DNA of 64,000 bases from Malacoraja senta (lineage: Eukaryota), in NCBI GenBank assembly GCA_038087875.1, contig CM075979.1, positions 45,446,001 through 45,510,000 of the forward strand, read 5' to 3'. The position numbers were made by a program, and so were the translations under genes. Each line of letters opens with the position of its first letter. Positions within the stretch are counted from its first letter, which is position 1. Shown here piece after piece: positions 1-25,200 of this stretch. The notes under the pieces are model-generated. The model made no database searches. It had not been told where the DNA came from and saw nothing but the letters and a program-made list of their open reading frames with translations.

Positions 1-180
1 CTCTAGTTTCTCTTTGACTGAGAGGGTAAAGACCCTTTGGGGTATGTGCTGAACTGGTGGCATGTTTTCTTGAATGAACTCTATTTTGTATCCCCGAACA
101 CTGTTAAGTATATAACTATCATTCGTGAGAGACCTCCATGCTTCAATGAACAGATGTAATCTCCCCCCTGTTAGTACAGT
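1..180 (-). CDS. DIRS pol (RT ORF) N-terminal fragment, truncated by window edge
   Basis: Manual translation TVLTGGRLHLFIEAWRSLTNDSYILNSVRGYKIEFIQENMPPVQHIPQRVFTLSVKEKLE. Confidence 0.7.
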
Positions 181-400
181 CCCCCACTTTTTATATGCTG
201 ATAGGAACCAGACCCACCTACCTCCATAGTTACGGGAGTGTTCATTGCTTCTGTTTCTTCATCCGCCGTTGTACTGCTGGATGTCCTGTTGGTTGGGGGT
301 GGCGCATTTTTCATGGGGTCCGCTCTGGGCCCTGGCCTAAAAAAGGCTTTCGGGGATGGAATGCGGACCCCGAGCTTTCACCAGTCCTGAATGTTTGTCG

Positions 401-1522
401 TCAACTGGTGGACGTGGTGGGGTACTGCTGTCTGGGTTGTGTGGGTCTGCTCGTTCTGGGGCCTGCCCTCATGAGGCCAAATGCTTTGGCCTCTTCCTCC
501 AGGTCTTTTACTTGTTTTGTTAAGTCCTTCCCGAATAACAGGATCTGTGGCTCTGAGGCCGGTGTTTTACACAGTCCTGCATACCTGGGATTGAGGGCAG
601 GTCTTATTATCTCCTTGCGGAGGTTGTTGATCTCGTATTGGGTGTTGCACAGCATAGCTAGAGTGTCTTGCTGGTCTGTGGTCATATCCACCCCATCCAC
701 GGAACGAGCATAGGATGTTATCCCTGTTGTCAGGAGCTTGAGGATGCGTTGTAATTTTAGCTCTTGGCTCCGGATACTCTGTCCAACATACCCCCAGATT
801 TGGCTGTTAACGGCCGGTACATTAAGCGAACTGCAGTTCTCCGGAGGCGAGTAGATTTCTAGTGCCTCATTAAGTACCTGATCTTGTAGGGGTTTGACAG
901 ACAGGTGGTTAATGCTGGCCGCCAGTTTTGGCTCCAATGGCCGCCCTGCTCGTGGTGTAGCCACGTAGCGATTCACCACACCCAGCAGCTCTTCCTGGTC
1001 CTGTACCCCAAGCGTACTCCCGATATCTTCAGCCAATGACCCCTGTTCTTGACCAGCCCAGTCCTGGTCGCCAATGCTGCCCTCGGCTGAGGGAGAAGCA
1101 ATGGCCAGTGCATTGTAAGGCACTGCTGTGGGAGTGCCTGAACCCCCTTTGCGAGACTGCTCCAGCTCCCGAAGCAAGTCTTGCTGGAGCAGTTGCTCCA
1201 TGAGCCTTTCCATTTGGCTCAGGCGGCTACCCCTTCCGCTCTCAGGCGGAGCCTCCTCATCGGAGTCAGACATAACCGGCCGGTCTGTTTTTTGTCTTGA
1301 TTTGCCTCCAGCCCGCTGCTGCTCCTCAGGCTGCGCTAGCGGTACTGGGCTCGGCTCGGTCTCGATGAGGGTGGACCGCAGCATGTGCGGTCCAGGTGCC
1401 GCCTCTCGCCCCCCACTGATGGGACCCTCTGGGTCTGTTGGAGTCGAACGGGGGGTGGTTTTCTTTGCTTGCCGTGCTTTACTCATTTTCCCAGTTTTAT
1501 CTGGAATTACAGAGCAGAGCAA
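401..1522 (-). pseudogene. DIRS gag-like ORF, 373 aa, ending at a probable premature TGA
   Basis: Motifs PPENCSSLNVPAVNSQIW, RKEIIRPALNPRYAGLC and LLFGKDLTKQVK. The frame stays open ~50 codons beyond the TGA at 401-403 (to ~243). Confidence 0.75.
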
Positions 1523-1692
1523 GCTTGCTATTATGACCTCAGAGTAAGTACTTACCTGATGGGCCGCTTTTTAAACTTGTAGCGGGAGCGCCTTGTACTC
1601 CCGTTCGTCGCTGTTGCACTGCGTGAACGCTCATGTCGTGCATGCGTGCTGGACGGGCTCTTCACGTAGTCACTCACGTGACTCCGAAGTAA

Positions 1693-4510
1693 AATCTGCA
1701 ATTTGAGAAGGAGAACGTTAAATCGGAAGTGGCAGTGATGCAGTTGAACAAAGGGGACTATGAAGGCATGAGAGGGGAGCTGGCCAAAGTAGACTGGAAA
1801 GGGATCCTAGCAGGAATGACGGTGGAACAGCAATGGCGGGAATTTCTGGGCATAATCCGGGAGACGCAGGATCATAGATACATAGATACATAGATACATA
1901 GAAAATAGGTGCAGGAGTAGGCCATTCGGCCCTTCGAGCCTGCACCGCCATTCAATATGATCATGGCTGATCATCCAACTCAGTATCCCGTACCTGCCTT
2001 CTCTCCATACCCCCTGATCCCTTTAGCCACAAGGGCCACATCTAACTCCCTCTTAAATATAGCCAATGAACTGGCCTCAACTACCCTCTGTGGCAGAGAG
2101 TTCCAGAGATTCACCACTCTCTGTGTGAAAAAGTTTTTCCTCATCTCGGTCTTAAAGGATTTCCCCCTTATCCTTAAGCTGTGACCCCTTGTCCTGGACT
2201 TCCCCAACATCGGGAACAATCTTCCTGCATCTAGCCTGTCCAACCCCATAAGAATTTTGTACGTTTCTATAAGATCCCCTCTCAATCTCCTAAATTCTAG
2301 CGAGTATAAGCCAAGTCTATCCAGTCTTTCTTCATATGAAAGTCCTGACATCCCAGGAATCAGTCTGGTGAACCTTCTTTGCACTCCCTCTATGGCTATA
2401 ATGTCCTTCCTCAGATTTGGAGATCATTTCATTCCAAAAAGGAAGAAAGATTCTAAGGGGAGTAGGAGGCAACCATGGCTGACAAGAGAAGTTAGGGATA
2501 GAATAAAACTAAAAGAAAAGATGTGTAACACAGCAAAGAGTAGCCGGAAGCCAGAGGATTGGGAAACTTTCATAGGACAACAGAAGGAAACAAAACGTGC
2601 AATACGGGCTGAAAAGATGAAGTACGAGGGGAAGCTGGCCAGGAATATAAAGAAGGACAGTAAAAGCTTCTTTAGATATGTTAAGGGAAAAAGAGTAGCA
2701 AAGTCAAATGTGGGTCCCTTGAAGGCAGACACGGGTGAAATTATTATGGGCAACAAGGAAATGGCAGAACAGTTGAATAGGTACTTCGGATCTGTTTTCA
2801 CTAAGGAAGACACAAACAATCTCCCAGATGTACTGGAGGACAGAGGATCTAAGGGGGTAGAGGAACTGAAAGAAATTTTCATGAGGCGAGAAATAGTATT
2901 GGGTAGGCTAATGGGACTGAAGGGTGATAAATCCCCTGGGCCTGATGGTCTGCATCCCAGGGTCCTCAGGGAGGTGGCTCTAGAAATAGTGGACACATTG
3001 GTGATTATTTTCCAATGTTCAATAGATTCAGGATCAGTTCCTGTGGATTGGAGGATAGCTAATGTTATCCCACTTTTCAAGAAAGGGGCGAGAGAGAAAA
3101 CGGAGAATTACAGACCAGTTAGCCTGACTTCGGAGGTGGGAAAGTTGCTGGAGTCAATTATTAAAGAGGTAATAATGGGGCATTTGGATAGCGGTAAAAG
3201 GATTAGTCCAAGTCAACATGGATTTATGAAAGGTAAATCATGCTTGACTAATCTTCTGGAATTTTTTGAGGATGTGACAAGTAAAATGGATGAAGGGGTG
3301 CCAGTGGAGGTAGTGTATCTAGACTTTCAGAAAGCCTTTGATAAGGTCCCGCACGGGAGACTGGTGACTAAAATTAGAGCACATGGTATTGGGGGTAGGG
3401 TGTTGCCATGGATAGAAAATTGGTTGGCAGACCGGAAGCAAAGAGTAGGAGTGAATGGGTCCTTTTCAGAATGGCAGGCAGTGGCGAGTGGAGTGCCGCA
3501 AGGCTCGGTGTTGGGGCCACAACTGTTTACCATATATATTAATGATTTGGAAGAGGGAATTAGGAGCAACACTAGCAAGTTTGCAGATGACACAAAGCTG
3601 GGTAGCAGTGTGAACTGTGAAGAGGATATTAGGAGGTTGCAGGGTGACCTGGACAGGTTGAGTGAGTGGGCAGATGTGTGGCAGATGCAGGATAATATAG
3701 ATAAATGTGAGGTTATCCACTTTGGCGGCAAAAACAAGGGGGCAGATTATTATCTCAATGGGGTTAGGTTAGGGAAGGGGGTGGTGCAGCGAGACCTGGG
3801 TGTCCTTGTATGCTGGTCACTGAAAGTTGGCGTGCAGGTACAGCAGGCAGTGAAGAAAGCTAATGGAATGTTGGCCTTCATAACAAGAGGATTTCAGTAT
3901 AGGAGTAAAGAGGTTCTTCTGCAGTTGTATAGGGCTCTGGTGAGACCACATCTGGATTATTGTGTACTGTTTTGGTCTCCTAATTTGAGGAAGGACATCC
4001 TTGTGATTGAGGCAGTGCAGCGTAGGTTCACGAGATTGATTCCTGGGATGGCGGGACTGCCATATGAGGAAAGATTGAAAAGACTAGGCTTGTATTCACA
4101 GGAGTTTAGAAGGATGAAGGGATATCTTATAGAAACATATACAATTATAAAAGAACTGGACAAGCTAGATGCAGGAAAAATGTTCCCAATGTTGGGCGAG
4201 TCCAGAACCAGGGGCCACAGTCTTAGAATAAAGGGGAGGTAATTTAAGACTGAGGTGAGAAAAAACTTTTTCACCCAGAGAGTTGTGAATTTGTGGAATT
4301 CCCTTCCACAGAGGGCAGTGGAGGCCAAGTCACTGGATGGATTTAAGAGAGAGTTAGATAGAGCTCTAGGGGCTAGTGGAGTCAAGGGATATGGGGAGAA
4401 GGCAGGCACGGGTTATTGATTGGGGGCGATCAGCCATGATCACAATAAATGGCGGTGCTGTCATGAAGGGCCGAATGGCCTCCTCCTGCACCTATTTTCT
4501 ATGTTTCTTC
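1693..4510 (+). mobile_element. CR1 LINE (ORF2 RT region to 3' tail), interrupted by a nested CR1
   Basis: ORF 2257-4242 has [36 protein letters not shown] and FADDTKLG. It stops early at 4240-4242 (LRIKGR*). CR1 3' UTR and ctatgtt-type tail at ~4500. Confidence 0.92.
1876..2421 (-). mobile_element. 5'-truncated CR1 nested in the CR1 above
   Basis: ORF 1980-2384 is the CR1 ORF2 C-terminus. Tail (tagataca)n at 1876. TSD GATCAT at 1870-1875 and 2422-2427. Confidence 0.92.
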
Positions 4511-5199
4511 TTTTCTGTTTGTTTCTGTCTCTGGGGAGCTACATGGATGGAAATGATGATTACACATCCGTTGTTGAGGGTCCACATACTCTTTTATCTC
4601 ACTCCCCAGATAACGGTGTTTCATAGGTAATACTGTCCTGAAGGCACAACAACTTGACAAAAGTTATTAAACGAGTTTACAATTGCTCCTATCCCTCACT
4701 CCTACACCTCCTGCGCAATATATTATTTTCTTTCTTTTCCCAAGTGCCATTCTAAATTCCTTTGAATTTGTTCGTTATCCTGACACCAGCTACTTTCTCT
4801 CTCTCTTGGTTCCTTTATTAATTTTGCTCCTTTCTATCAATGGGCTGTTTTTGATCCCGATTCTACCTTCTCTTCTATTTTCCTCCATCCAAGTTTTACA
4901 AGGGTTTCTCTCGTTCTAATTCTGGTTGCTATTTTCCCTTGGACCATCTCAGTGTTATGAGGAGGGTACTTTATCTTCTCAGAATCATTTCTGTCTTCTG
5001 AGGCAGGGGTCAGGTTATTCCATCCGCACTGTGGACTAGCTGGCAGATCAGGATTATAAAAATGGATTCGGCTGCGAGAAGGGTGATTGGTCTCCTGCCC
5101 CCTGATCCTCTGGACAGCGTACTCTCCTTCGATCTTCAGGCTCCCAAGTATCCATATATCCCCTAGGGATCCACCGACTTCTTGGACCTCGTGACCCTT

Positions 5200-6141
5200 T
5201 TCTTTGACCCCTTCCTCCTCTTTGATCCCTCATAGGGCAAGCTCTGCTCCAGTGCCCCCTCTCTCCACAGGCTTAACACTGGTTTGGCCCAACAATTTGG
5301 TACCCTTTCCCATAGAATTGAGGAAAATCAGGCTCTCAAATAGGCATGTCCCTAAGGTAGTCTGGAGGGTTCCAAGCCTCTTCTTTTGATCTAACTTCAA
5401 GTTTCTGTATTAATTTCACTGGTCCTTGGATGGATTTAATAAGAGTGGCAAAGATGGTCTCTTCCCTATCTCTTCCCTGTTGACTCCACTCGAGTGCCCT
5501 GTTCACAGGCTACACACGGTGCCTTGGGATCGGGAAAGTGAGAGGTCTGAGAGGAATACTGCGATTCTGTACCAAAAAGGTCTGCCCATCCTTTTAAATA
5601 TTGGTCTTCCTTCTCTTCAAGATCCACACTGACTGCTGCGCTCTTAATAAATTTAATCAATTTAATTTTTTCTGAGCCACTTCCCCTTTAAGAGTTGCTG
5701 GAATCAACTCCCCGGTAAGAGTTTCTACTCTTCTCTGTTCCTGCTCTCGATCTTTGATATCTCTCTCTCTTTTCTTTCAGAAATCTCCAGAGAAGGACCA
5801 GCTCTCACCACTTCTAGCTCTATTCCCAGCCTTGAAGCTGCCGTCCTCCACTTCCTAACAATTTCTTTAGTCACCTTCCTCTTCGTAAAATACATTTTCC
5901 ATAACCATATAAGCTAATTTCCTCTCTCACTATTCCCATACTTCCTAACAATTTTCTCGATATACATTATCCCAGTCACAGACTTTAGACCACCTATCGG
6001 CCATAATTCACTTCCTGGCTCTTTGTTCAATTTTCCCGAAGATTTCTGTAAGCTTTCAATTCTCAAAGGAAATTCATCCCACATTAATTGGATTGGGCTT
6101 TCAGAAAGTGTTGTTATGTCTTTCTCTAGATTATTTCCCAT
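5200..6141 (-). pseudogene. Degenerate retroviral gag-like ORF
   Basis: Starts MGNNLEKDITTLSESPIQLMWDEF...LWPIGG (Met-Gly, matrix-like). After an in-frame TAG at 5914-5916 it continues LIWLWKMYF. It ends with the knuckle C*ACGERGHWSRAC (CX2CX4HX4C with one stop) followed by an RGG-rich stretch. Confidence 0.6.
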
Positions 6142-6229
6142 GGTTTTTGCAGAAAAGAAACAACACAGCAATAATATAACTACAGATAAATTTCTGACTC
6201 ACCTACGCAATACAGATAATGATAAATCT

Positions 6230-7308
6230 GTGGCACACAAAAATGCTGGAGAAACTCAGCAGGTGCAGCAGCATCTATGGAGCGAAGGAAATAGGCAACG
6301 TTTCGGGCCAAAACCCTTCTTCAGACTGATGGGGGGTGGGGAGAAGAAAGGAAAAAGGCGGAGGAAGAGCCCGAGGGCTGAGGGATGGGAGGAGACAGCC
6401 CAAGGGCTGAGGAAGGGGAGGATACAGCAAGGGCTAACAAAATTGGGAGAATTAAATGTTCATGGCCCCAGGATGTAGACTGCCCAAGCGGAAAATGAGG
6501 TGCATTTCCTCCAATTTCCGGTGTTGCTCACTCTGGCCATGGAGGAGACCCAGGACAGAGAGGTCGGATACGGAATGGGAGGGGGAGTTGAAGTGCTGAG
6601 TCAGGTTGGTTATTGCGGACCGAACGGAGGTGTTCGGCGAAACGATCGCCAAGCCTCCGCTTGGTCTCACCGATGTAGATCAGCTGACATCTAGAGCAGC
6701 GGATGCAATAGATAAGGTTGGAGGAGATGCAGGTGAACTTCTGTCACACCTGGAAGGACTGCTTGGGTCGAATGGAGTCAAGGGGGGAGGTGAAGGGACA
6801 AGTGTTGCATCTCTTGCGGTTGCAAGGGAAAGTGCCCGGGGAGGGGGTGGTACGGGAGGGAAGGGAAGAATTGACAAGGGATTTACGGAGGGAGCGGTCT
6901 TTGCGGAAGGCAGACATGGGGGGAGATGGGAAGATGTGGCGAGTGGTGGGGTCCCGTTGGAGGTAGCGAAACTGACGGAGGGTCACTTGTTGTATGTGAC
7001 GGCTGGTGGGGTGAAAGGTGAGGACTAGGGGGACTCTGCCCTTGTTGTGAGTGGGGGGATGGGGAGAGAGAGCAGTGTTGCGGGGTATGGCAGAGACCCT
7101 GGTGCGAGCCTCATCTATGGTGGAGGAGGGGAACCCCCGTTCCCTGAAGAATGAGGACATTTCGGATGCCCTGGTGTGGAACGCCTCATCCTGGGAGCAG
7201 ATGCGGCGTAGACGGAGGAATTGGGCGTGGAGGATGGAGTCCTTACAGGAAGCAGGGTGGGAAGAAGTGTAGTCCAGATAGCCATGGGAGTCAGTGGGTT
7301 TATAGTGG
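6230..7308 (-). mobile_element. Penelope-like element (GIY-YIG end), 5'-truncated, inserted in the ERV leader
   Basis: ORF 6744-7160 (RVPLVLTFHP...FPCNRKRCNTC) continues into IYCIRC...YIGETKRRLGDRFAEH. 11-bp TSD ATGATAAATCT at 6219-6229 and 7309-7319. Confidence 0.9.
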
Positions 7309-7652
7309 ATGATAAATCTTTCTCACTATCACCTCTTCAATACTTTGCTCCTCCCTTTCACTTCCCAGATCTTGAACAATAGCTAACATCTCCCAAACAA
7401 TTGCACAGTTAATCTTCCCAATCTAATATTCAATCACTATATTTTATGTTCAATTGCTCTGTTCAATCTTTATTCAATCGCCCACTCCACTTTCTTATCA
7501 ATCTCCTCTCTCATTCACAATCACCCATTCAACTTCCAATCTGTAAACAGTTCCGACTCCCAGACTAAGGTACTTAATATTCAAATAGCAGCACTCTCCC
7601 ACTCAAAATACTTCACTTTAACAGAGACAAATAAATCCAAACCACGCAAGCA

Positions 7653-7806
7653 AAACTATACCTAACTCAGAAACTATACCTAACCCAGAAACTATACCTA
7701 ACCCAGAAACTATACCTAACCCAGAAACTATACCTAACCCAGAAACTATACCTAACCCAGAAACTATACCTAACCCAAAAACTATACCTAACCCAGAAAC
7801 TATACC
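7653..7806. repeat. 18-bp tandem repeat (aaactatacctaacccag) x ~8.5
   Basis: Directly visible near-perfect head-to-tail units with no spacers. Confidence 0.97.
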
Positions 7807-8807
7807 ACCCATTACAAGCAAACAATACACAACAATATAAACTATAAGCATTCACTTCCTATCGCCCACTAATAATTAAATCACCCACTATTTTAACGTC
7901 TCCTCGTGGTGTACTCGGTCAATGGAACAATCCCTCCTTCGAAACAATCAATTGGAAGGATACGAACCCCCGATCGAACAACCACGGATCGGTCTTCAAT
8001 ACTAACATAATCCAAACCAAACCGAATTAAATTCTTACACGTTGACTCTAACCCACTGTTATCCCAATTTTCTAAAAACCCAAACGCTTAAACAACACAC
8101 AATCAGTACTATATATCTATTTGCGATCTTAACACTTTACAAGTGCCTCTTACACGCAAAAAAGTATTTATATACAGTTTGGATGCAAAAGAAATATATA
8201 CTTGAGATTCACAAAATTCTATCACGATCAATACAATACACTATAACCGCAACACTATAACAGTAATTTTAATTCACAGTTTCAAAACCAATCACAATAT
8301 TTTGTCTCGCTGCTATCAACCAGTGAACTCTCCCTCCAATACAGAAGACTTTCCTTTCCTCGGTACTCTTTGCTGAGGGGTACTACTTCTTAATCAGCTA
8401 CTTTTCACCTTCAGATACTTTTCCTCTCGCTAAGACTCAACTTTTATTGGGGGACCTTTCCCTCCACTCTAAGTTCTCAGAATTAGGGGTACTTTTTCCC
8501 GTCCAGTTACTTTTCACTGAAAAATCAGTTTCCCCTTCTCTCAGTTACTCTTTGCTATTAGGTACTAATCAACAATCGATCAGAGGGGGTACAAACTCCT
8601 GGTTGATCAGCCATGATTCAAAATCAATCAGAAATACTCGATACAAACTTCGAAGTTATTATAATACACAGAATTCTGAGTACGTGCCAGATCCTCAATA
8701 TGAGAGTCTATATTTAGATACTTTCAAATCGATAAGTTTCAGTTTGCTCTGATCGGACCAATTAGAAATTTGGTGCGTAATTCGACGTACGCAAATGCAA
8801 ATTCTAA

Positions 8808-9340
8808 AGGGCCTGTCCCACGGGCAGACGATTCCAGGCGGCAAGCGGGGGTCGCGCGGCTGCCGCGCGGGTGCCACCGTATGGCCTGTCCCACGAGCAT
8901 GCGAATGCATGCGGCAAGCGCAACCTAACCGGAAGCGGTTGCCGCGCGGAGGCCGAGTGATTACCGTACGGCCTGTCCCACGAGCATGCGAATGCATGCG
9001 GCGAGCGCGGCATCGGGTGATGACGTCATTGTGCAACGCAATGCGCTAGCGTACTCCGTCGAGACGGTGCGCGCCATCCAGGCGGTGCGTGCGGCGTCCA
9101 GGCGGTGCGTGCGGCGTCCAGGCGGTGCGTGCAGCGTCGAGGCGGCAGGCCGTTGCCGCACGGGATTTTTGGACAGAGTCAGTTTTTCTGAGCCCCGCGC
9201 TGTGTCGGAACCAACTACATCCGGCTCCGGCTATCTACGTGGGGCCGACCCCGCGGCCCCCGGGGCGGTCCCCGCACGGCCTCCACTTCCTGCTAGGTCG
9301 CGCTTGCCGCCTGGAATCGCCTGCCCGTGGGACAGCCGCT
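8808..9340. mobile_element. PIF/Harbinger-type MITE
   Basis: TIRs AGGGCCTGTCCCAC / GTGGGACAGCCGCT and TSD TAA (8805-8807, 9341-9343). GC-rich and non-coding. Confidence 0.88.
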
Positions 9341-10030
9341 TAATTTAGTTCAGATAGAATTCTCGAATAAGTATTCTCAACCAATCTCTACTCTAACCAC
9401 CGAGCCCGATGCCTTTACACGGGAGTGTCCTCCCCCATCCTTTCAGAGATCCGGCGAGGACTCCAACCACATAGGCTCACCCTGTCAAAAAGGCTTTTTC
9501 CTTTCCACCTGCTTGGCACTGGGGCTCAGCGCGTAACCTCTTCACGCTGACAGTCGATGCCGATTTCTGGAGCGCGCCTCCAATCTGTGCCCCCAGCAAC
9601 AACACAGTGCTTTGCCTCTTAGCACTGACCAAAACCCAGTTTTGTCTTTCAATATCCCGTCAATCGGGTATCCAATTCTAGGCAGGGCCTCCAACCCAAC
9701 TTACCGAACGGAACAATGTTTTGGTTTTTGCCAGCAGTAGCAGCTACCAACTACGACTAGGTTTTAGGGGACATCAACCCCAAGGAGAGGGACTTCAACC
9801 CAACCCTAGTAGGGACTCCAACCCCAAAGGCGCTTTCGCCCCCAGTGCTTGCTAGACTCTGTTCTACGATCTCGTTGGGACCCTTCCCAAGTCCATGAAT
9901 GATTTATCTGCTCCGACTAGCGAAGTGATGAAAACAATGCGAAAACTGCACCATGGCACCGATTTCTGCACTCCTGATCGGGACAGCACAACACCGTTAA
10001 TCGCAAACTTGTGTTTGGTGGTCCGTTGAG

Positions 10031-10048
10031 ATCCCGGAAGAGCCCCCA
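10031..10048 (-). promoter_or_regulatory. Retroviral primer-binding site, tRNA-Pro
   Basis: - strand TGGGGGCTCTTCCGGGAT matches the canonical tRNA-Pro PBS TGGGGGCTCGTCCGGGAT at 17/18 positions and lies 1 nt after the LTR-terminal CA. Confidence 0.92.
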
Positions 10049-10049
10049 A

Positions 10050-10434
10050 TGTAAATTACCTCTTCTAAGCTTCTCCCCAGTCTAGTTCAGTCAATAAAAC
10101 ACTGATTCAAGCACTGGAACAACTAAACTTTATTTTTCCGATAGCACAACAAATTACCCTCTATGATACCTAAACCAACCGCAGGTTCGATCCTTGTATC
10201 TGCCTGGCCAAGCCCTTGAGCTCGTGCAAGCCGAGACACTCCAAAAGATCACGCAGTCCCAAGCACTCTTCCAGAAGATCGTCAAAGACCTTGTGGGGGC
10301 TGCCTTTTATAGGTCCCTAAACCTTGAGGGGCCAAACTACAGATGGGTGGTCTGTTTACAATCCAATCAACATAACAGATTACAACAATACAGTATTGAC
10401 AGTTACACAGAGCAATGACAAAATCTCATTTACA
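10050..10434 (-). mobile_element. ERV 5' LTR (385 bp)
   Basis: - strand termini TGTAAAT...ATTTACA form a perfect 7-bp inverted repeat. TATAAAA at 10305-10311 and AATAAA at 10129-10134 are in U3-R-U5 order. The PBS follows immediately. Confidence 0.85.
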
Positions 10435-10479
10435 TTGCTGCAGGAGAAGCACCACGGCCCAACCCTCTATCATAAAGGT

Positions 10480-10680
10480 CAGATGGAAGTTCTTGAATTA
10501 CTCGTTTTATTATGCTACTATATTACTTCGTTTGTTGTTTTTTGTGATTTCACACCGCTGCTTTGAAGATTGACATGCAGGCGCACTGGCGGGGTTCTTC
10601 TCACGTAATCACCAACGTAACTCCTCATAAAATAAAGATCAAACTTCAAACTGGTAAGTTCTTGTTTAATCTTACTATTA
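10480..10680. mobile_element. Possible DIRS terminal-repeat fragment
   Basis: gcaggcgcactggcggggttcttctcacgtaatcaccaacgtaactcc resembles the DIRS terminus at 1640-1690 (gcatgcgtgctggacgggctcttcacgtagtcactcacgtgactcc). Confidence 0.4.
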
Positions 10681-10815
10681 ATCCTGCTTATCTCTGAGCT
10701 CTTTATTAAGGCTGCTTATCAGGCCTAATTTACCTTTCACCTTATCCAGGTTGCCATCTGATTCCATTAATTCCTTCACACTATCAAACAGCCTCCTTAT
10801 CTTCATCCACAACGT

Positions 10816-16200: not shown

Positions 16201-19200
16201 AGAGCAGGGTTCTTGACCCGACAATGAAGGCCCGTTGTGCTGACGGTGTTGCAGGGTCGACCTGGCCAAGTGTAGCCATGATGTTCTCCGCCACTGCTCC
16301 ACCGCTGTAGGCCGCATCCGGTCCACACGCTCCCCATCTTGGAGCGGCACCCAGTCCAACAAAGAGCAAAGAGTAGGAGTGAACGGGTCCTTTTCAGAAT
16401 GGCAGGCAGTGGCGAGTGGAGTGCCGCAAGGCTCGGTGTTGGGGCCGCAACTGTTTACCATATATATTAATGATTTGGAAGAGGGAATTAGGAGCAACAC
16501 TAGCAAGTTTGCGGATGACACAAAGCTGGGTGGCAGTGTGAACTGTGAAGAGGATGTTAGGAGGTTGCAGGGTGACCTGGACAGGTTGACTGAGTGGGCA
16601 GATGCGTGGCAGATGCAGTATAATATAGATAAACGTGAGGTTATCCACTTTGGCGGCAAACACAAGGGGGCAGATTAATTATCTCAATGGGGTTAGGTTA
16701 GGTAAGGGGGAGGTGCAGCGAGACCTGGGCGTCCTTGTCCTTGTACGGTCACTGAAAGTTGGCTTACAGATACAGCAGGCGGTGAAGAAAGCTAATGGAA
16801 TGTTGGCCTTCATAACAAGAGGATTTCAGTATAGGAGTAAAGAGGTTCTTCTGCAGTTGTATAGGGCTCTGGTGAGACCACATCTGGAGTATTGTGTACA
16901 GTTTTGGTCTCCTAATTTGAGGAAGGACATCCTTGTGATTGAGGCAGTGCAGCGTAGGTTCATGAGATTGATCCCTGGGATGGCAGGACTATCATATGAG
17001 AAAAGATTGAAAAGACTAGGCTTGTATTCACTGGAGTTTAGAAGGATGAGGGGATATCTTATAGAAACATATAAAATTATAAAAGGACTGGACAAGCTAG
17101 ATGGCAGGACAAATGTTCCCAATGTTGGGCGAGTCCAGAACCAGGGGCCACAGTCTTAGAATAAAGGGGAGGTCCTTTAAGACAGAGGTGAGAAAATACT
17201 TTTTCACCCAGAGAGTTGTGAATTTATGGAATTCCCTGCCACAGAGGGCAGTGGAGGCCAAATCACTGGATGGATTTAAGAGAGAGTTAAGGGCCTGTCC
17301 CACGGGCATGCGACTCCATGCGGCAAGCGGGACCTAACCGGAAGCGGGGGCCACGCGGGGGCCGCGCGGGGGCCGCACGGGGGCCGCGCGGAGGTCGAGT
17401 GATCCCCGTACAGGGCCGGTCGCACCAGCATGCGGCTGTATGCGGCAAGCGCGACCAAACCGGAAGCGGGGGCCGCGCGGAGGTCAATTGAGTGTCGCGG
17501 GAAGTACGCGACACTCAATTAGTGTGGCGTCAAGACGCTGTGTATGGCGTCGAGACGCTGCGTACGGTGTCGAGGCGCTGCGCACGCCTCGAAACCGTAC
17601 GTATTGCGTCGAAGCGGTGCGTACGGCGTTGAGGCGGGTGTGGGCTGGCAGGCCGTTGCCGCGCGGAATTTTTGAACACGGTCAGTTTTTCGGAGCCCCG
17701 CGCGATGTCAGGACCAGCTCCGCACAAATCCATACGGCTCCCGGCGATCGAAGTGGGACTGGCCCCGCGAGGCCGCACAGCTCAAGCGACCACGTTAGAT
17801 CGCGCTTGCCGCATGGAGTCGCATACCCGTGGGACAGGGCCTTTGGATAGAGCTATAGGGGCTAGTGGAATCAAGGGATATGGGGAGAAGCCAGGCACGG
17901 GTTATTGATAGGGGACGATCAGCCATGATCACAATGAATGGCGGTGCTGGCTTGAAGGGCTGAACGGCCTCCTCCTGTACCTACTTTCTATGTTTCTATG
18001 TTTCTATGTTTCTATGTTTCTATGTTTCTATGTAACCGAGCCCCAGGCTGTTGCAGGGCCTCCAGCGGCCCACTCCTCCATCGAGGCCGTGCACTCCATC
18101 CCGCAGCCCGCATGCTCACCGGCCCTCCTATCAGGGTGGGCTTTTCAGGCGGATTCACGTGGTGTGGGTTCTCGTGTTCCCTGTTCGTGTTCCTGGTCCG
18201 TGGGGTGGGTTCCTGTGTTCCCGATCTGTGGTGTGTTCCCGTGATCCCAGTCCATGTTCCCGTGATCCCAGTCCATGTTCCCATGTTTCCAGTCCGTGGC
18301 ATGTGTTTCCATGTTCCCAGTCCGTGTTCCCGTGTTGCCGGTCCGTGGCATGTGTTTCCGTGTCCCCAGTCCGTGGCATGTGTTTCCGTGTTCCCGGTCC
18401 GTGGCGTGTGTTCCCGTGTTCCCGGTCTGTGGCATGTGTTTCCGTGTTCCCAGTGCATGTTCCCATGTTCCCGGTCCGTGTCATGTGTTTCTGTGTTCCC
18501 AGTCCGTGTCCCCGGTCCATGGCATGTGTTCCCGTGTTCCCGGTCTGTGGCATGTGTTTCCGTGTTCCCAGTGCGTGTTCCCATGTTCCCAGTCCATGGC
18601 GTGTGTTTCCGTGTTCCCCGTCCGTGGCGTGGGTTCACGTGTGGACGCTGACAATGCTTCTCATAACTTTATATACTTTTATCAGGTCATCGGTATATAC
18701 GTCTTTCACAATTAATGTTTTTTATGCTTTTTTTAGATACCTTAGAGCTGGAGATATTTGCAAGTCCACTGATGGTATTTGTAAATGACAATGCGACTCT
18801 GAAATGCATGGTTACTGGGTCTGGAAACATTGACTTAAAAAAGATGGCAGTCAGATGGACCCTTAATGAGAAAACAGAAGTGTTTTCCTTTGAAGGAGGA
18901 ACTAAAGAGCGAAATCGATCTGGTGCCAATATTTCTGAGGCTGAATTACTGAAGGGAAATGCTTCAATTCATCTTCCAAAAGTCCAGATCTCTGACGATG
19001 GAATGTACACATGCACTGTGTTTATCGTTCCTGAAAGTGCCAGTCGCTTTTCAACAATGCACGTGTTAGGTAAGATTAACGATAACGTTCAGGAATATAA
19101 TTCCAAGAAAATGGTTTGGAAGTTTGAAACAAGGATGAACAGGGATTTAGATTCTTAGACCACTGGGATCTGCTTTGGGATAAGGGTGAATTGTACAAAA

Positions 19201-22200
19201 GGGACGGGTTGCACTTTAACAGGCGGGGAACCAGCATTCTGGCAGACAGGTTTGTCACTGCTACATGGGTTGGTTTAAACTAAATAATTGGGGGGGGGGG
19301 GGGGGGAGGAGAAAAATTGGAAATACAAGGATGGAGTTAAAGGGAGAGTACAGGAAAAGTTAAGAAAGACACCAGAATTAACGGGGCAGAAAGCTCACAA
19401 AGGGATAGGAGAGTATGGCCAAATTAAATAGGAATCGATGTGAAAGGTGAGGATAGCAATTGATTAAAAGTTTTATATATGAAGTATAAGAAGTAAAGTG
19501 GATGGGTTTGAGGCTCAGTTAGTGATTGGTAGATATGGCATTGTGGGGATTACAGAGACGTGGCTGCAGGAGGATCTGGCCTGGGAACCGAATATTCAGG
19601 GTTATACGTCCTATAGAAAGGACAGGCAGGTGGGCAGAGGAGGTGGGGTAGCTCTGTTGGTGAGGGATGAAATTCAGTCCCTTGCGAGGGGTGACATAGG
19701 GACTGACGATGTAGAGTCGCTGTGGATAGAATTGAGGAATTGTAAAGGTAAGAAGATATTAATGGGAGTTATCTACAGGCCCCCAAACAGTAGCCCGGAT
19801 GTAGGGTGTAAGTTGCAGCAGGAGTTAAAACTAGCATGTAACAAAGGTAATGCCACTGTGGTTATGGGAGATTTCAATATGCAGATAGACTGGGAAAATC
19901 AGGTTGGTTCTGGACCCAAAAAAGAGAGTTTGTGGAATGCCTCCGATATGGATTCTTAGAGCAGCTTGTACTGGAGTCAACCAGAGAGAAGGCAATTCTG
20001 GATTTGGTGTTGTCTAATGAACCAGATTTAAGAAGGGAACTCAAGGTAAAGGAACCGCTAGGAGGGAGTGACGATAATATGATTAGTTTTAATCTGCAAT
20101 TTGAGAGGGAGAAGTTTAAATCAGAAGTGTCAGTGTTGCAGTTGAACAAAGGGGACTATGAAGGCATAAGAGAGGAGCTGGCTAAGGTCGACTGGAAAAG
20201 GATCCTAGCAGGAATGACGGTGGAACAGCAAAAGCAGGAATTTCTGGGCATAATCCAGAAGATGAAGGATCATTTCATTCCAAAGAGGAAGAAAGATTCT
20301 AAGGGAAGTAAGAGGCGACCATGGCAGCAATGGAAGTTAGGGATGGAATAAAACTAAAGGAAAAGGTGTATAACATAGCAAAGAGTAGCGGGAAACCAGA
20401 GGATTGGGAAACTTTCAAAAGACAACAGATGGTAACAAAAAGGGCAATACGGGATTAAAAGATGAAGGAAGCTGGCCAAGAATATAAAGAGGAGAGTAAA
20501 AGCTTCTTTAGGTATGTTAAGAGATAAATATTAATAGGTGTGTCTGTCCTCTAGTAATATAACTGCCCAGTGACAGTGAATAGAACTGGTTCATATGACT
20601 CTCCATTAATGAAGCTTGATCATTGTGTTTTAATTCTTGTAATTTTTCTTTAAATCGTGTTTTTTAAAACAATTGTTACTTCACTCATTTTGATTTTCAA
20701 TGATGCAGACATTCCATGCGATGAATTCTCCCCTCTCTGCAACTTAACTGAACAGCGCAGGAACAAGCTATTCAGCCCACAATGTCTATTCTGAACATAA
20801 TGCCAAGACCATCTCTTATCTACCTGCACTTATGTGTAGTCCATATCCCTCCATTCCCTGCATATCCATGTGTTTATCAGTGCAGTAGATTTAGTTTATC
20901 GTCATATCAAGGTGTGCATTTTGTTGCTTTTGTTGTCTGCTAACCTATCAGTGGAAAGACAATTACAATTGAGCCATCTATAGTGTACAACTGGGTGAAG
21001 CAGGATCACCACGTACAGTTGGGAAGCAGTTGGGAAGGGGCGCGCCGCAGAAGCACAGAGGAAACACGCCGCGCGCGGGGCTCGGGCCACTTTGGCTTCT
21101 ACTGCGGTGCCCACCCAGCTTTGTCCCATATGCGGGCGAGCCTTCCGGGCCCAGATCGGACTCGCCTGTCACCTTGGGACCCACAAACAAAAACACTGAA
21201 GTCATGGACTTCTTCAACTACGAAGGACCAACAACAACAACAACAACAGATACATGATCAGAGAATAACATTTAGTGCAAGATAAAGCCAATAAAGTCCG
21301 ATCAAAGATAATCCGTGGATCATCAAAGAGGTAGATAGTAGTTCAGCACTGTTCCCTAGTTGGTGATAGGATGGTTCAGTTGCCTGATAACAGCTGGGAA
21401 GAAACTGTCCCTGAATCTGGAGATGTGCGTTTTCACACTTCTATATCCTTTGTCTGATGGGAGAGGGGAGCAGAGGGAGTGGCCAATGTGTGACTCGTCC
21501 TTGATTATACTGCTGGCCTTGCCGCGGCAGCGTGAGGTATAAATGGAGTCAATGGAAGGGAGGTTGGTTTGTGTGATGGTCTGGGCTGTGTCCACAATTT
21601 GCTGCAATATCGTGCGGTCTTGGTTCCAGCTGTTCCCAAACAAGGCGATAAAATGCTTCCCACGGTGTATCTGTAGAAGTTGGTGGGAGTTGCAGGGGAT
21701 GTTTTGGATGTACCTATCAAAAAGTCTCCTAAATGTCACAATCGTATCTGCCTCCACCACCACCCCTGTTAAAGTGCATTCCAGGCAAGTGTGTAAAAAC
21801 ACATCTCCTTTAAACGTTGCTCCTCTCACCTTAAAGCAGCGGCATCTAGTATTTGATATTTTCATCCTGGGAAAATGGTTCTGACTGTCTTCCCTACCTG
21901 TGCCTCTCATAATTTGATATACTTCAATCAGGCCTTTCTACAACCTCCGGCATTCCAGAGAAAACAATCCAAGTCTGTCCAAACTCTCCCTTAGTTAATG
22001 CCCTCGAATCCATCCATTCTGGTAAACCTCCTCTGCACCCTTTCCAAAGCCTCCAGACCCTTCCTGTAATGGGGTGACCAGAAGTGTGAAAACACACACC
22101 TCCAGATTCAGGGACAGTTTCTTCCCAGCTATTATCAGGCAGCAGAACCTTCCTACCACAAGTAGAGAGTAGTCCTGAACTACTATCTACTTCATTCATT

Positions 22201-25200
22201 TTGCACTAAGCATAATTCCCTTATCATGCATCTGTACACTGTGAATGGCTTGATTGTAATCATGTATTGTCTTTCCACTGACTGGTTAGCACGCAACCAA
22301 AGCATTTGATGTACCTCATCACATGTGACAATAAACTAAAGTGAACTGAAACAGAACTGCCCACAACAGTCTAAATACAGTTGAAACCATGTCCTATGAA
22401 GCTGAATCATGACTTCCTGACTCTTATACTCAATGACCCAACCAATGAATGCAAGCACACCATGTGCCTACTTTATCATATTAATGTCTTCAGATGCTAA
22501 TGGTGCTAACATTCCTAACTCTGATGAAGAGACCCCAGCTTGAAAAAATGACCCTGTTCCATTCCCTGCCAATATTTTGGGACCTGCTTAGTGCTTCCAG
22601 TATTGTCTGCTTTTATTTTCCATCTCCAGCACCTGCAGTCTCTTCCTCTAATATTTAAATGTACATTTTTTAATGCAGCTCGACCAAACGTCAGTATATC
22701 GACACAGTCCATCACAAATGAGAAAGGTTCAGAAGTTTCTCTGACATGCAAAGCCAGTGGATTTTACCCTCGACCGATAAACATCACCTGGGTGAAGATA
22801 ACAGGAAGAAGAAATGTTTCCATGAATAACTATACAACACAAATCACTGCCAATGGTGATCGCACTTTCAATGCTGAGAGTAAACTGAAGATTCACCCGA
22901 CATTGAACGATAATGTTGATCAATACAGATGCGTAGTGAGACATCAAACATTCCTGAATGGTCTCATAATAGAACCTTCTCTCACCGTGCCAGGTGAGTT
23001 GAACACAGTGGGAGAGTCTAGGACCAGAGGCCACAGCCTCAGAATAAAAGGACGCACCTTTAGACAGGAGATGAGGAGGAATTTCTTTAGTCAGATGGTG
23101 GTGAATCTGTGGAATTCATTGCCACAGACGGCTGTGGAGGCCATGTCATTGGGCATTTTTAAGACAAATTGTCAGATTCTTGGTTAGTATGGGTGTTGGG
23201 GTTATGGGAGAAGGTAGGAGATTGGGATTGGGTGGGAAAGATAGATCAGCCATAATTGAAAGATGGAGTAGACTTGATGGGCTGAATGGCCTAATTCTGC
23301 TCCTATCATATGAATTTGAACTTATCTAAGCATTTGGCCCATATCCCTCTAAACGTTTCCTATCCATGTACTGTACAAAAATCGTTTAAATGCTGTTATA
23401 GTACCAGCCCCAACTCCCTCCTCTGGCAGCTGGTTCCATTTACCCACAGCCCTCTGAGTGTGATGTTTCCCCTCAGCTTCCTATTAAATCTTTCCCCACT
23501 CACCTATGTCCCCTGGTTCTTGATTCCCCTTGGCTGGGGGGTAAAAGTATCTGCATCCACCCCATCTATTCCCCTCATTTAAGAATTAAATAATTAGAGG
23601 TGTCAGCCTTTTGTAATGAGCGCTGATGTACATCATCCTTGAATAAAGTGAGGGGTCAGATGTGAAGTGCATCAGGACCCTCAGCTCTGGAGATAACTGC
23701 TTCACTGATGGAGTCAGTGTGTGGCTCAGCGGCAAAATGGATTCAGGGCAATGAGCAGTGTTCCACAGTTGAATCACCACCGGTTCAATGCTTGTCTGGT
23801 TATGTCTGACAAGTCAGGTTCTAGAATATTAATCTAGATACATACAACTTTGCGGATTGCCACATGTCTAGAAACTTGTACATAAAGGACCTCTGGTCAT
23901 TCCCAGAGTCTGGAACAGCACAGAATTGCATCAAGTAGAGTTGCTGCTTCATAGCTCCAGAGACCAGGTTTCAATCCTGACCACGGGTGCCGTCTGTGTG
24001 GAGTTTGCCCATGCTCCCTGTGACCACGTGGGTTTCCTCCAGTTTCCACCAGCATCGCAAGGACATGCAGGATTGTAGGTTAATCGGCCCTCTGTAAATT
24101 GCCGTTAGTAGTGTGGGATAATATAGAACTAGTGTGAACGGGTGATCGATGGTCGGCGTGGTCTTGGTGGGCTTTAGAGTCTGTTCAATCAATTCAATCT
24201 CTCAATTCAATTCAATGCAATTCATCAAATCAAGGATTATTAACACATTCCTGACCATTTAAGTCAATCTATTGCTTCTTTTATTCAAAGTCTGTGCAAT
24301 TTTATATATTTAAAATTTACAACACCCAGAAATCAAATTACGCTTTAATTATAATCTGCATCATGGTGACGATATGTATAATCCTTGGAATCTTAAATGC
24401 TACGGCTGTTTTACACCTGGGAAATAAACACAATAGGTACCATTTATGTACAGAACCTAGAACAGTACAGCACAGGAGCAGGCCCTTCGGCCCACAGTGT
24501 TGAACATGATGCCAAGATAAACTCATGTCCTCTGCCTGTGTGTGGTCCATGTCCCTCCATTCCCTGTATATCCATGTGCCTATTTATAAACCTCCCAAAT
24601 GCCACTATCGTATCTGCATCCACCACACATAGCAGTACATTCTCGGTATCCACTCTCTGTTTAAAAACTTGCCCTGTACATCTCGTTTAAACATTACTCT
24701 TCTCGCCTTAAAACTATGCTCTCCAGATTCTCACTATTACATCCTGGGTAAATATTCTGACTGTCTACCTTATCTATGTCTCTCATAATTCTATATACTT
24801 CCATCAGTTCTCCCCTCCACTTGCGTCATTCCAAAGAAAACAATCCAAATCTGTCCAACCTCTCAGTGTAGCTGATACCCCCTAATCCAAGCAGGCACTC
24901 TGATAACCCTCTTCTGCACCCTTTCCAAAGCCTCCACATCCTTCCTGTTATGGGGTGACCAGAACTACACCAATTCCATAAGGGAATACACCAATCTGGT
25001 AAGTAGAATAAGTTAGTGATACATTCTGTGGAATATTGTACATAAATCAAATTGCTGGAGGAACTCAATGGGTCAGGCAGCATCTGTGGAAGGAATGGAG
25101 AGGTGATGTTCCCGACCATAAACATCGTCTGTTCATTCCCTCCACAGATGCTGCCTGACCCACTGAGTTCCTCCAGCACTTTGTGTTTTGCTCAAGATTC

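Follow-up and report, generated by a model that had tools for sequence, protein, structure and literature searches.

A retrovirus-derived, pol-less LTR element in the skate Malacoraja senta, and a possible cis-acting role for its shortened Gag

What kind of element leaves a retroviral long terminal repeat (LTR), a primer-binding site (PBS) and a fragment of gag in a skate genome, and how did it come to multiply there? The question is raised by a 64,000-nucleotide stretch of Malacoraja senta DNA (GCA_038087875.1, contig CM075979.1, positions 45,446,001 to 45,510,000, forward strand; hereafter the window), in which a reading made from the sequence alone had placed, at 4530..10434 on the minus strand, a tRNA-Pro-primed endogenous retrovirus (ERV) hidden under other insertions. 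It is close to certain that the element in this region is retrovirus-derived and non-autonomous. The copy in the window is probably an old, broken, pol-less and env-less LTR element that descended from a class I ERV, was mobilised by a helper, and encoded a short Gag serving as a cis adaptor. Pol, env and part of the capsid were gone from this pol-less family before it multiplied.

The other copies in the genome carry this conclusion, the sample being the best-scoring copies, about 60 loci of hundreds. Elements of about 7 kb, with the order LTR, leader, gag, remnant and LTR, dominate 20 stretches around the top gag and leader matches (among these stretches, L043 is of a full-capsid type and L031 is partial), and the first set of pol-less copies retains only traces of the start of reverse transcriptase (RT) and of integrase. 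A protein query across the gag junction returned 150 matches among 150 scored (679 candidates), of which 139, by hand count, span the capsid-deletion junction; the pol-less, env-less, capsid-deleted family comprises at least 139 loci. No RT was found inside the element in any of 16 further junction-spanning copies, and two sister env proteins gave nothing better than E=0.04 in 44 loci. The copies are dispersed and individually broken by stops and frameshifts, each with its own target duplications, and their two LTRs, held gag frame, lack of RT and common deletions fit the profile of a gag-only non-autonomous element. In-place decay of an infectious provirus, the origin implied by the sequence-only reading, could also account for the PBS, the Met-Gly start, the zinc knuckle and the donor-like sites, and env-bearing relatives are present in the same genome. 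However, such an origin is very improbable, as the same losses of pol, env and capsid are common to many independent insertions in which env searches were empty, and the shared deletion junctions contradict decay in place.

Among the pol-less copies the deletions form an in-frame series, running from a full capsid (L102, L109-L113 and L115), through loss of the capsid C-terminal domain, to loss of nearly all the capsid, with the matrix, the nucleocapsid knuckle and the gag stop retained throughout. Gag of the window's type is colinear with the capsid N-terminal domain for about 150 residues and then passes straight to the linker before the knuckle, being about 340 nt shorter; capsid start and knuckle lie 497-588 nt apart in 14 pol-less copies, versus 859-881 nt in five pol-bearing ones. 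The third type has also lost most of the N-terminal domain, yet in four of its copies one frame of 374-419 codons stays open past the knuckle as far as the end of gag; Leucoraja erinacea has an annotated gene for this most-deleted Gag type (P0122). A tree of matrix DNA with 40 rows placed all 23 capsid-deleted rows on one side of a branch with 100% support by the SH-like approximate likelihood ratio test (SH-aLRT), in the order pol-bearing, pol-less with full capsid, C-terminal domain lost, and nearly all capsid lost, the last nested within the preceding type. It is nearly an even question, falling slightly short, whether this series records a capsid-less matrix-linker-nucleocapsid adaptor from a long-lived lineage of skate parasites, which shed its capsid stepwise in frame while selection held both ends. 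Separately, two of the full-capsid copies, L111 and L115, carry heavily decayed RT and RNase H traces (26-37% identity), which suggests that decay of pol preceded its deletion.

Selection is likely to have acted on the shortened Gag, judging by the frequencies of differences at zero-fold and fourfold degenerate sites, counted pairwise only, in ten pairs, with one reference used twice for the two parts of the window copy. These counts, with frame, CpG and integrase controls, replaced first estimates of dN/dS, a method by which non-coding controls came out at 0.33-0.93 and which was therefore not used as sole evidence. The differences in gag arose after the loss of pol and part of the capsid, because the copies share those deletions. 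The ratio was 0.53 in the matrix (244/1614 non-degenerate versus 66/233 fourfold sites), 0.63 in the capsid (208/1263 versus 69/263) and 0.52 in the knuckle region of the nucleocapsid (69/537 versus 26/105), and 1.31 in the integrase remnant (188/1439 versus 24/241). When CpG sites were excluded, the ratios were 0.61, 0.76 and 0.54 for matrix, capsid and nucleocapsid, and 0.66 for pooled gag (p=5e-5), with 1.19 in the integrase remnant and 1.0-3.7 in shifted frames. Six pairs of the most-deleted type gave 0.69 (p=3e-4), compared with 1.08 when read in the +1 frame and 0.90 for the integrase.

The main rival is that this signal was imported by recombination or reflects constraint at the RNA level. 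The element would then still be non-autonomous, with an inert Gag, and the pattern would come from recombination with helpers in shared particles, from RNA signals for packaging or dimerisation, or from a need for an open frame to stabilise the RNA. The closeness of the LTR 3' halves between types, that of the pol-bearing locus L011 being 90% identical to the window's, is in keeping with such exchange, as is the restriction of sampling to top matches; exchange between competent and defective elements is also described for cattle ERVK in the available part of PMC10924933. Yet the matrix is nested among pol-bearing copies in 0 of the 23 capsid-deleted rows, and the synonymous distance between pol-less and pol-bearing types is near saturation (dS ~2.2-2.5 in usable pairs). 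Furthermore, the constraint tracks the gag frame and is lost in shifted frames, which RNA structure does not predict, and stop avoidance alone would probably yield a much smaller deficit. An inert Gag is therefore unlikely, if still the most serious competitor. A host role, with the short Gag retained because it blocked the pol-bearing family trans-dominantly, in the manner of Fv1 or endogenous Jaagsiekte sheep retrovirus (enJSRV), is more doubtful again. Capsid fragments can poison assembly, a Ty1 capsid-domain restriction factor is among the fold matches of the partner's capsid, and the most-deleted Gag has its gene annotation in L. erinacea; but many dispersed, individually broken copies with their own target duplications point to selection that acted while the element spread and not once it had inserted, and the capsid is the very part that was lost.

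The class of the element is provided by its pol-bearing partner family. L011 encodes gag, pro, RT, RNase H and integrase, although broken by stops, frameshifts and one insertion, and has in common with the pol-less copies the 3' half of the LTR, the PBS and the first ~470 bp of the leader, making it an autonomous-type relative in the same genome. Its Pfam matches are RVT_1, RNase H, rve and MLVIN_C, and its RT, used as a query of the genome, gave 150 matches among 150 scored, mostly at 70-93% identity. This RT, with a YVDD motif, scored 213 bits against a murine gammaretroviral RT, versus 139.5 for foamy virus, 116 for Ty3 and at most 72 for others. Class I traits are also present in the single CCHC knuckle, the integrase C-terminal domain of the murine leukaemia virus (MLV) type, and the position of gag and pro in one frame across a single TGA in 12/12 pol-bearing copies in which the motif was found, a putative readthrough layout. 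One frame with one stop is the readthrough layout of class I ERVs. The stop was TGA in all 12 motif-matching copies among L011 and L071-L084; that of MLV is TAG. In one pol-bearing copy (L011, L050/L051) the 3' half of the LTR is 89-90% identical to the window's, with a 5' end of another type, and LTR exchange between pol-bearing and pol-less types is likely from this mosaic.

No env was found between integrase and 3' LTR in the partner family: the LTR begins 205-315 bp past the integrase in nine of the ten copies showing both, and about 1.1 kb past it, without env similarity, in the tenth. Env is present only in sister families. Two of these (L086-L092), with RTs 59-63% identical to the partner's, have env by Pfam in one copy each, one of them differing by only a few percent from proteins of Leucoraja and Amblyraja; genome-wide, TLV_coat, the type of env carried by the sisters, gave 78 matches scored of 853 candidates. 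The env-less family is nested among the env-bearing sisters in the RT tree, and therefore loss of env is the simpler reading. The closest database proteins, at 56-72% identity, were from sharks and skates, where they are annotated only as 'uncharacterized', and identity was at most 50% elsewhere. The RT tree has 54 rows, being 45 of 120 database hits, picked for breadth, and nine from the genome; it recovered an elasmobranch clade with SH-aLRT of 100%, with amniote gamma-like rows set apart at 99%. Mammal, snake and bird rows with Gag_MA or p30 lie across that 99% branch; one turtle row with a p30 match does not. Membership of the gammaretroviruses (clade Jin) was rejected, the RT not grouping with those of amniotes.

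A derivation from a Ty3/Gypsy retrotransposon, which would suit the lack of env, the 4-bp target duplications and Copia as top capsid fold match in the PDB, is scarcely credible against the ranking and tree of the RT, MLVIN_C, the in-frame stop between gag and pro, the env-bearing sisters in the same RT clade, and a capsid with a beta-hairpin and epsilonretroviral top matches. The earlier assignment to a tRNA-Pro-primed class I retrovirus of chondrichthyan lineage, rather than to Gypsy, survives the genome-wide comparison, the class being drawn from the RT of the related pol-bearing family, the RT ranking and tree agreeing, and relatives being found in sharks and skates.

The predicted capsid of the partner (mean predicted local distance difference test, pLDDT, 80.6) combines an N-terminal beta-hairpin with two helical domains that meet near residue 128, and matches the folds of Copia, MLV, Rous sarcoma virus (RSV) and lentiviral capsids at Z 8-11. 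The top PDB match, Copia (Z 11.0, root-mean-square deviation (rmsd) 7.0, 151 aligned), is tied with MLV (Z 10.2, rmsd 5.8, 194 aligned); among viral models, the best retroviral matches were a Rhinella marina (toad) ERV, walleye dermal sarcoma virus (WDSV) and walleye epidermal hyperplasia virus 2 (WEHV-2). Sequence searches of Pfam and the PDB gave no Gag_MA, Gag_p30 or capsid match for the clade, and none of 7990 candidates scored with the matrix alignment was a longer protein, which is weak evidence.

Together, these data suggest how the element may have moved. It would have been transcribed from its own LTR and its short Gag translated and myristoylated at Gly2; this protein would bind its own RNA through the knuckle, reach the assembly site through the matrix, and be co-packaged with that RNA alongside helper Gag and Gag-Pol. 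Reverse transcription would be primed by tRNA-Pro, and integration performed by helper integrase, allowing spread inside germ cells by intracellular retrotransposition, using the enzymes and particles of the env-less gag-pro-pol family. That the shortened Gag worked as a cis-adaptor has an even chance or slightly better, from the pattern of retained domains and constraint.

Several observations weigh against this account. Firstly, Gag carries E or D at residue 6, where myristoylation favours S or T, while the matrix model is of low confidence (pLDDT 54.5; best Z 5.9; RSV matrix Z 4.2), with no clear retroviral matrix match. Secondly, with CpG sites removed the capsid by itself does not give a significant ratio (p=0.07), the references for the test of the most-deleted type were chosen for long open frames, and copy pairs share inner branches, so that p values overstate independence. 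Thirdly, only top-scoring copies were sampled, and a helper with gag near that of the pol-less type could thereby be missed. Fourthly, the trees are quick searches with midpoint roots, and it is under such a root that the elasmobranch clade sits with fish and amphibian rows, no named epsilonretrovirus being in the tree.

The window copy itself, for which the helper-mobilised, pol-less reading remains the preferred one, preserves the following parts.

10050..10450, minus strand: 3' half of the 5' LTR (distal U3, R and U5), sharing 82-87% identity with the full LTRs of other copies
10031..10048, minus strand: PBS, 17/18 to tRNA-Pro, 1 nt past the LTR
6142..10030, minus strand: leader, about 2.1 kb without insertions, assessed by a coarse coding test
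9475..9483, minus strand: candidate donor-like AGG/GTGAGC, GT at 9480, better conserved than the site at 6202
6197..6205, minus strand: donor-like TAG/GTGAGT, its hexamer common to copies and its AG found only in the window copy
5773..6141, minus strand: matrix-like region of gag from Met-Gly, with one stop, taken as matrix from its position
5475..5479, minus strand: site of a deletion of about 650 bp, in the window copy only, which took out the middle of gag together with most of the capsid N-terminal domain
5279..5474, minus strand: end of the capsid N-terminal domain fused to the pre-nucleocapsid linker, the capsid C-terminal domain being lost across the family
5237..5278, minus strand: single CCHC zinc knuckle with one stop inside, from Pfam match and sequence
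5054..5056, minus strand: gag stop after ...QPNPFL, matching the place of the gag/pro stop in pol-bearing copies
4507..5053, minus strand: non-coding pol remnant, in which the start of RT is briefly traceable near 4660-4540

Most landmarks of the sequence-only reading hold, and its boundaries change. The ACCATGG Met-Gly start, with its ATG at 6141 on the minus strand, is confirmed, as is the CCHC knuckle (C, stop, ACGERGHWSRAC at 5278-5237), which scores 20.8 bits against Pfam zf-CCHC, at the cut-off. The proposed 385-bp LTR does show TGTAAAT at 10434 and ATTTACA at 10050 on the minus strand, with TATAAAA at 10311 and AATAAA at 10134 in place, but 10434 is internal and homology continues to 10450. 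Comparison of the 5' and 3' LTRs of single insertions gives a full length of ~770-810 bp, of which the window holds only positions ~384-767, i.e. the 3' half. Paired LTRs start right after AAAAGGGAGGAA, the polypurine tract, and end in TTTACA, being of the TG...CA type. The LTR is multi-copy, from a genome search that scored 40 of 2935 candidates and found them 87-91% identical, and paired in single insertions, so the possibility that it was single-copy or never paired fails. Exact 4-bp target duplications flank six of eight LTR pairs, with three of four bases matching in one and one unresolved, and three of the nine top LTR matches are solo LTRs, with full or 3/4 target duplications. The 17/18 PBS stands when compared with the 3' ends of three tRNA-Pro(TGG) genes in the same genome; at 10048-10031 it is the sole tRNA-Pro site with at most four mismatches on either strand of the window. 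Of 12 other elements in which a PBS was detected, four match exactly (18/18).

The element does not end at 4530, as had been supposed, since a CR1 insertion begins at ~4506 and the 3' part resumes at L056:6313-4603, outside the window. There, beyond the nest, lie pol and integrase remnants, the polypurine tract and the start of the 3' LTR, whose first ~345 bp are at L056:4603-4948, before the window start. At its 5' end this copy has LTR positions ~384-767, and at its 3' end positions ~1-347; the two are near-complementary halves with a gap of about 40 bp, and neither missing half turned up in the window or the 30 kb before it. This could reflect two unrelated truncations, or the insertion of a one-LTR circle opened inside the LTR. 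As its LTR halves do not overlap, the window copy cannot be dated by its LTR pair. Other pairs differ by Kimura two-parameter distances of 0.053-0.092 (11 pairs) and 0.029-0.092 (nine further pairs). At the rate of 2.2e-10 per year that the available text of PMC4422223 assumes, the family may be ~65-210 million years old, possibly too old to be right, and no firm age is given; the shark rate in the accessible part of PMC10587355 (7e-10) was measured per generation.

A donor just upstream of gag had been offered as a class marker, a role it does not fill, as there is no env downstream to splice to. The sequence TAG/GTGAGT, with GT at 6202 on the minus strand, is present and its hexamer is common, but the AG is private to the window copy: GTGAGT or GTAAGT lies 44-62 nt before the ATG in 15/16 copies, with G at -1 in 4/16 and AG at -2/-1 in 0/16. 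The G/GTGAG of the 9480 site is kept in 13 of 14 aligned pol-less copies. Epsilonretrovirus-like elements can have accessory open reading frames (ORFs), cyclin-like or 5' of gag; the leader gave no clear coding signal in a coarse three-frame test, with no search aimed at accessory ORFs.

The remaining features are later insertions and rearrangements.

10451..10682, no strand: high-copy 230-bp element with a 78-bp inverted repeat, in the place of the 5' half of the LTR and resembling the neighbouring DIRS-like end
8808..9341, no strand: inserted miniature inverted-repeat transposable element (MITE), flanked by TTA, interrupting the leader
7653..7806, no strand: tandem expansion of an 18-bp unit, 8.6 copies, seen in the window copy only
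6230..7308, minus strand: inserted Penelope-like fragment (GIY-YIG), with an 11-bp duplication, AGATTTATCAT
1..4506, no strand: part of a nest of about 8.2 kb of CR1 (plus), CR1 (minus) and DIRS-like insertions, which splits the element

The 230-bp element is 95-97% identical to its 39 best other copies (of 3422 candidates), is usually accompanied by an adjacent inverted 78-bp repeat, and, with 78% similarity, resembles the terminus of the DIRS-like element in L056. The MITE, which we take to be Harbinger-like, has a second copy at 17287-17843. Elsewhere in the window, host immunoglobulin V-set and C1-set exons lie at 18667-19158 and 22552-23187 on the plus strand, about 8 kb from the element, which is upstream on the opposite strand; from the exon layout across 18667-23187 this may be a B7/NCR3LG1-like gene. 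A complex minisatellite with units of 21, 28 and 49 bp occupies 17975-18650.

An unnamed fish ERV would alone be routine, and the interest lies in a natural deletion series showing which parts of Gag a parasite drops and which it keeps. If the capsid-less adaptor is real, a minimal membrane anchor joined to an RNA-grabber suffices to place an element's own genome in another element's particle. If the short Gag worked in cis, it would extend the single-case result for the mouse intracisternal A particle (IAP) 1Delta1 to class I and to a capsid-less protein, and offer a reason why defective ERVs so often retain gag flanks. The literature searches turned up nothing on this family or on a capsid-less Gag in non-autonomous ERVs, although supplements and repeat libraries might already list the family.

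Epsilon-like ERVs are known in cartilaginous fish, and env loss has been linked with ERV spread in work cited by the same papers, as far as their available text extends (PMC4422223, PMC6001957, PMC10699275, PMC4977317, bioRxiv 10.1101/2021.11.23.469661). The skate family resembles CmiERV lineages II/III and clade Mu in being a class I ERV of cartilaginous fish, and perhaps in lying on the fish and amphibian side (available parts of PMC4422223 and PMC6001957). By description it is set apart, the CmiERVs being defined by having env, whereas the skate family is env-less with its own elasmobranch RT clade (PMC4422223, in part); it adds a case of env loss and expansion in these fish, of a kind that screens requiring env, as described there, miss by design.

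Among non-autonomous elements, cattle ERVK D/C, ETn/MusD, VL30/MLV and MaLR/ERV-L likewise pair an abundant defective partner with a competent family whose LTRs and flanks it carries, but in the portions available (PMC10924933, PMC6466679) these are described without intact genes, whereas gag of the skate element keeps a frame-specific signal of selection. Plant TR-GAG also consists of two LTRs and gag only, and is mobilised with a related autonomous element; according to the accessible text of PMC8704663 it is Copia-derived with a full-length Gag, while the skate element is retrovirus-derived with a capsid-deleted one. Mouse IAP 1Delta1 is similarly env-less and non-autonomous, with an open partial-gag frame and a need for helper gag and pol in trans; its gag-pol fusion acts in cis, the partial-gag product aiding its own retrotransposition (PMC6466679, in part), while cis action in the skate element is a prediction. 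IAP 1Delta1 is, on the same partial source, a class II element with gag fused to pol by one deletion, whereas the skate element is class I, its gag ends at its own stop, and several successive in-frame deletions over a long lineage removed its capsid. By analogy, the overall workings proposed for the skate element are closest to those of IAP 1Delta1 and plant TR-GAG.

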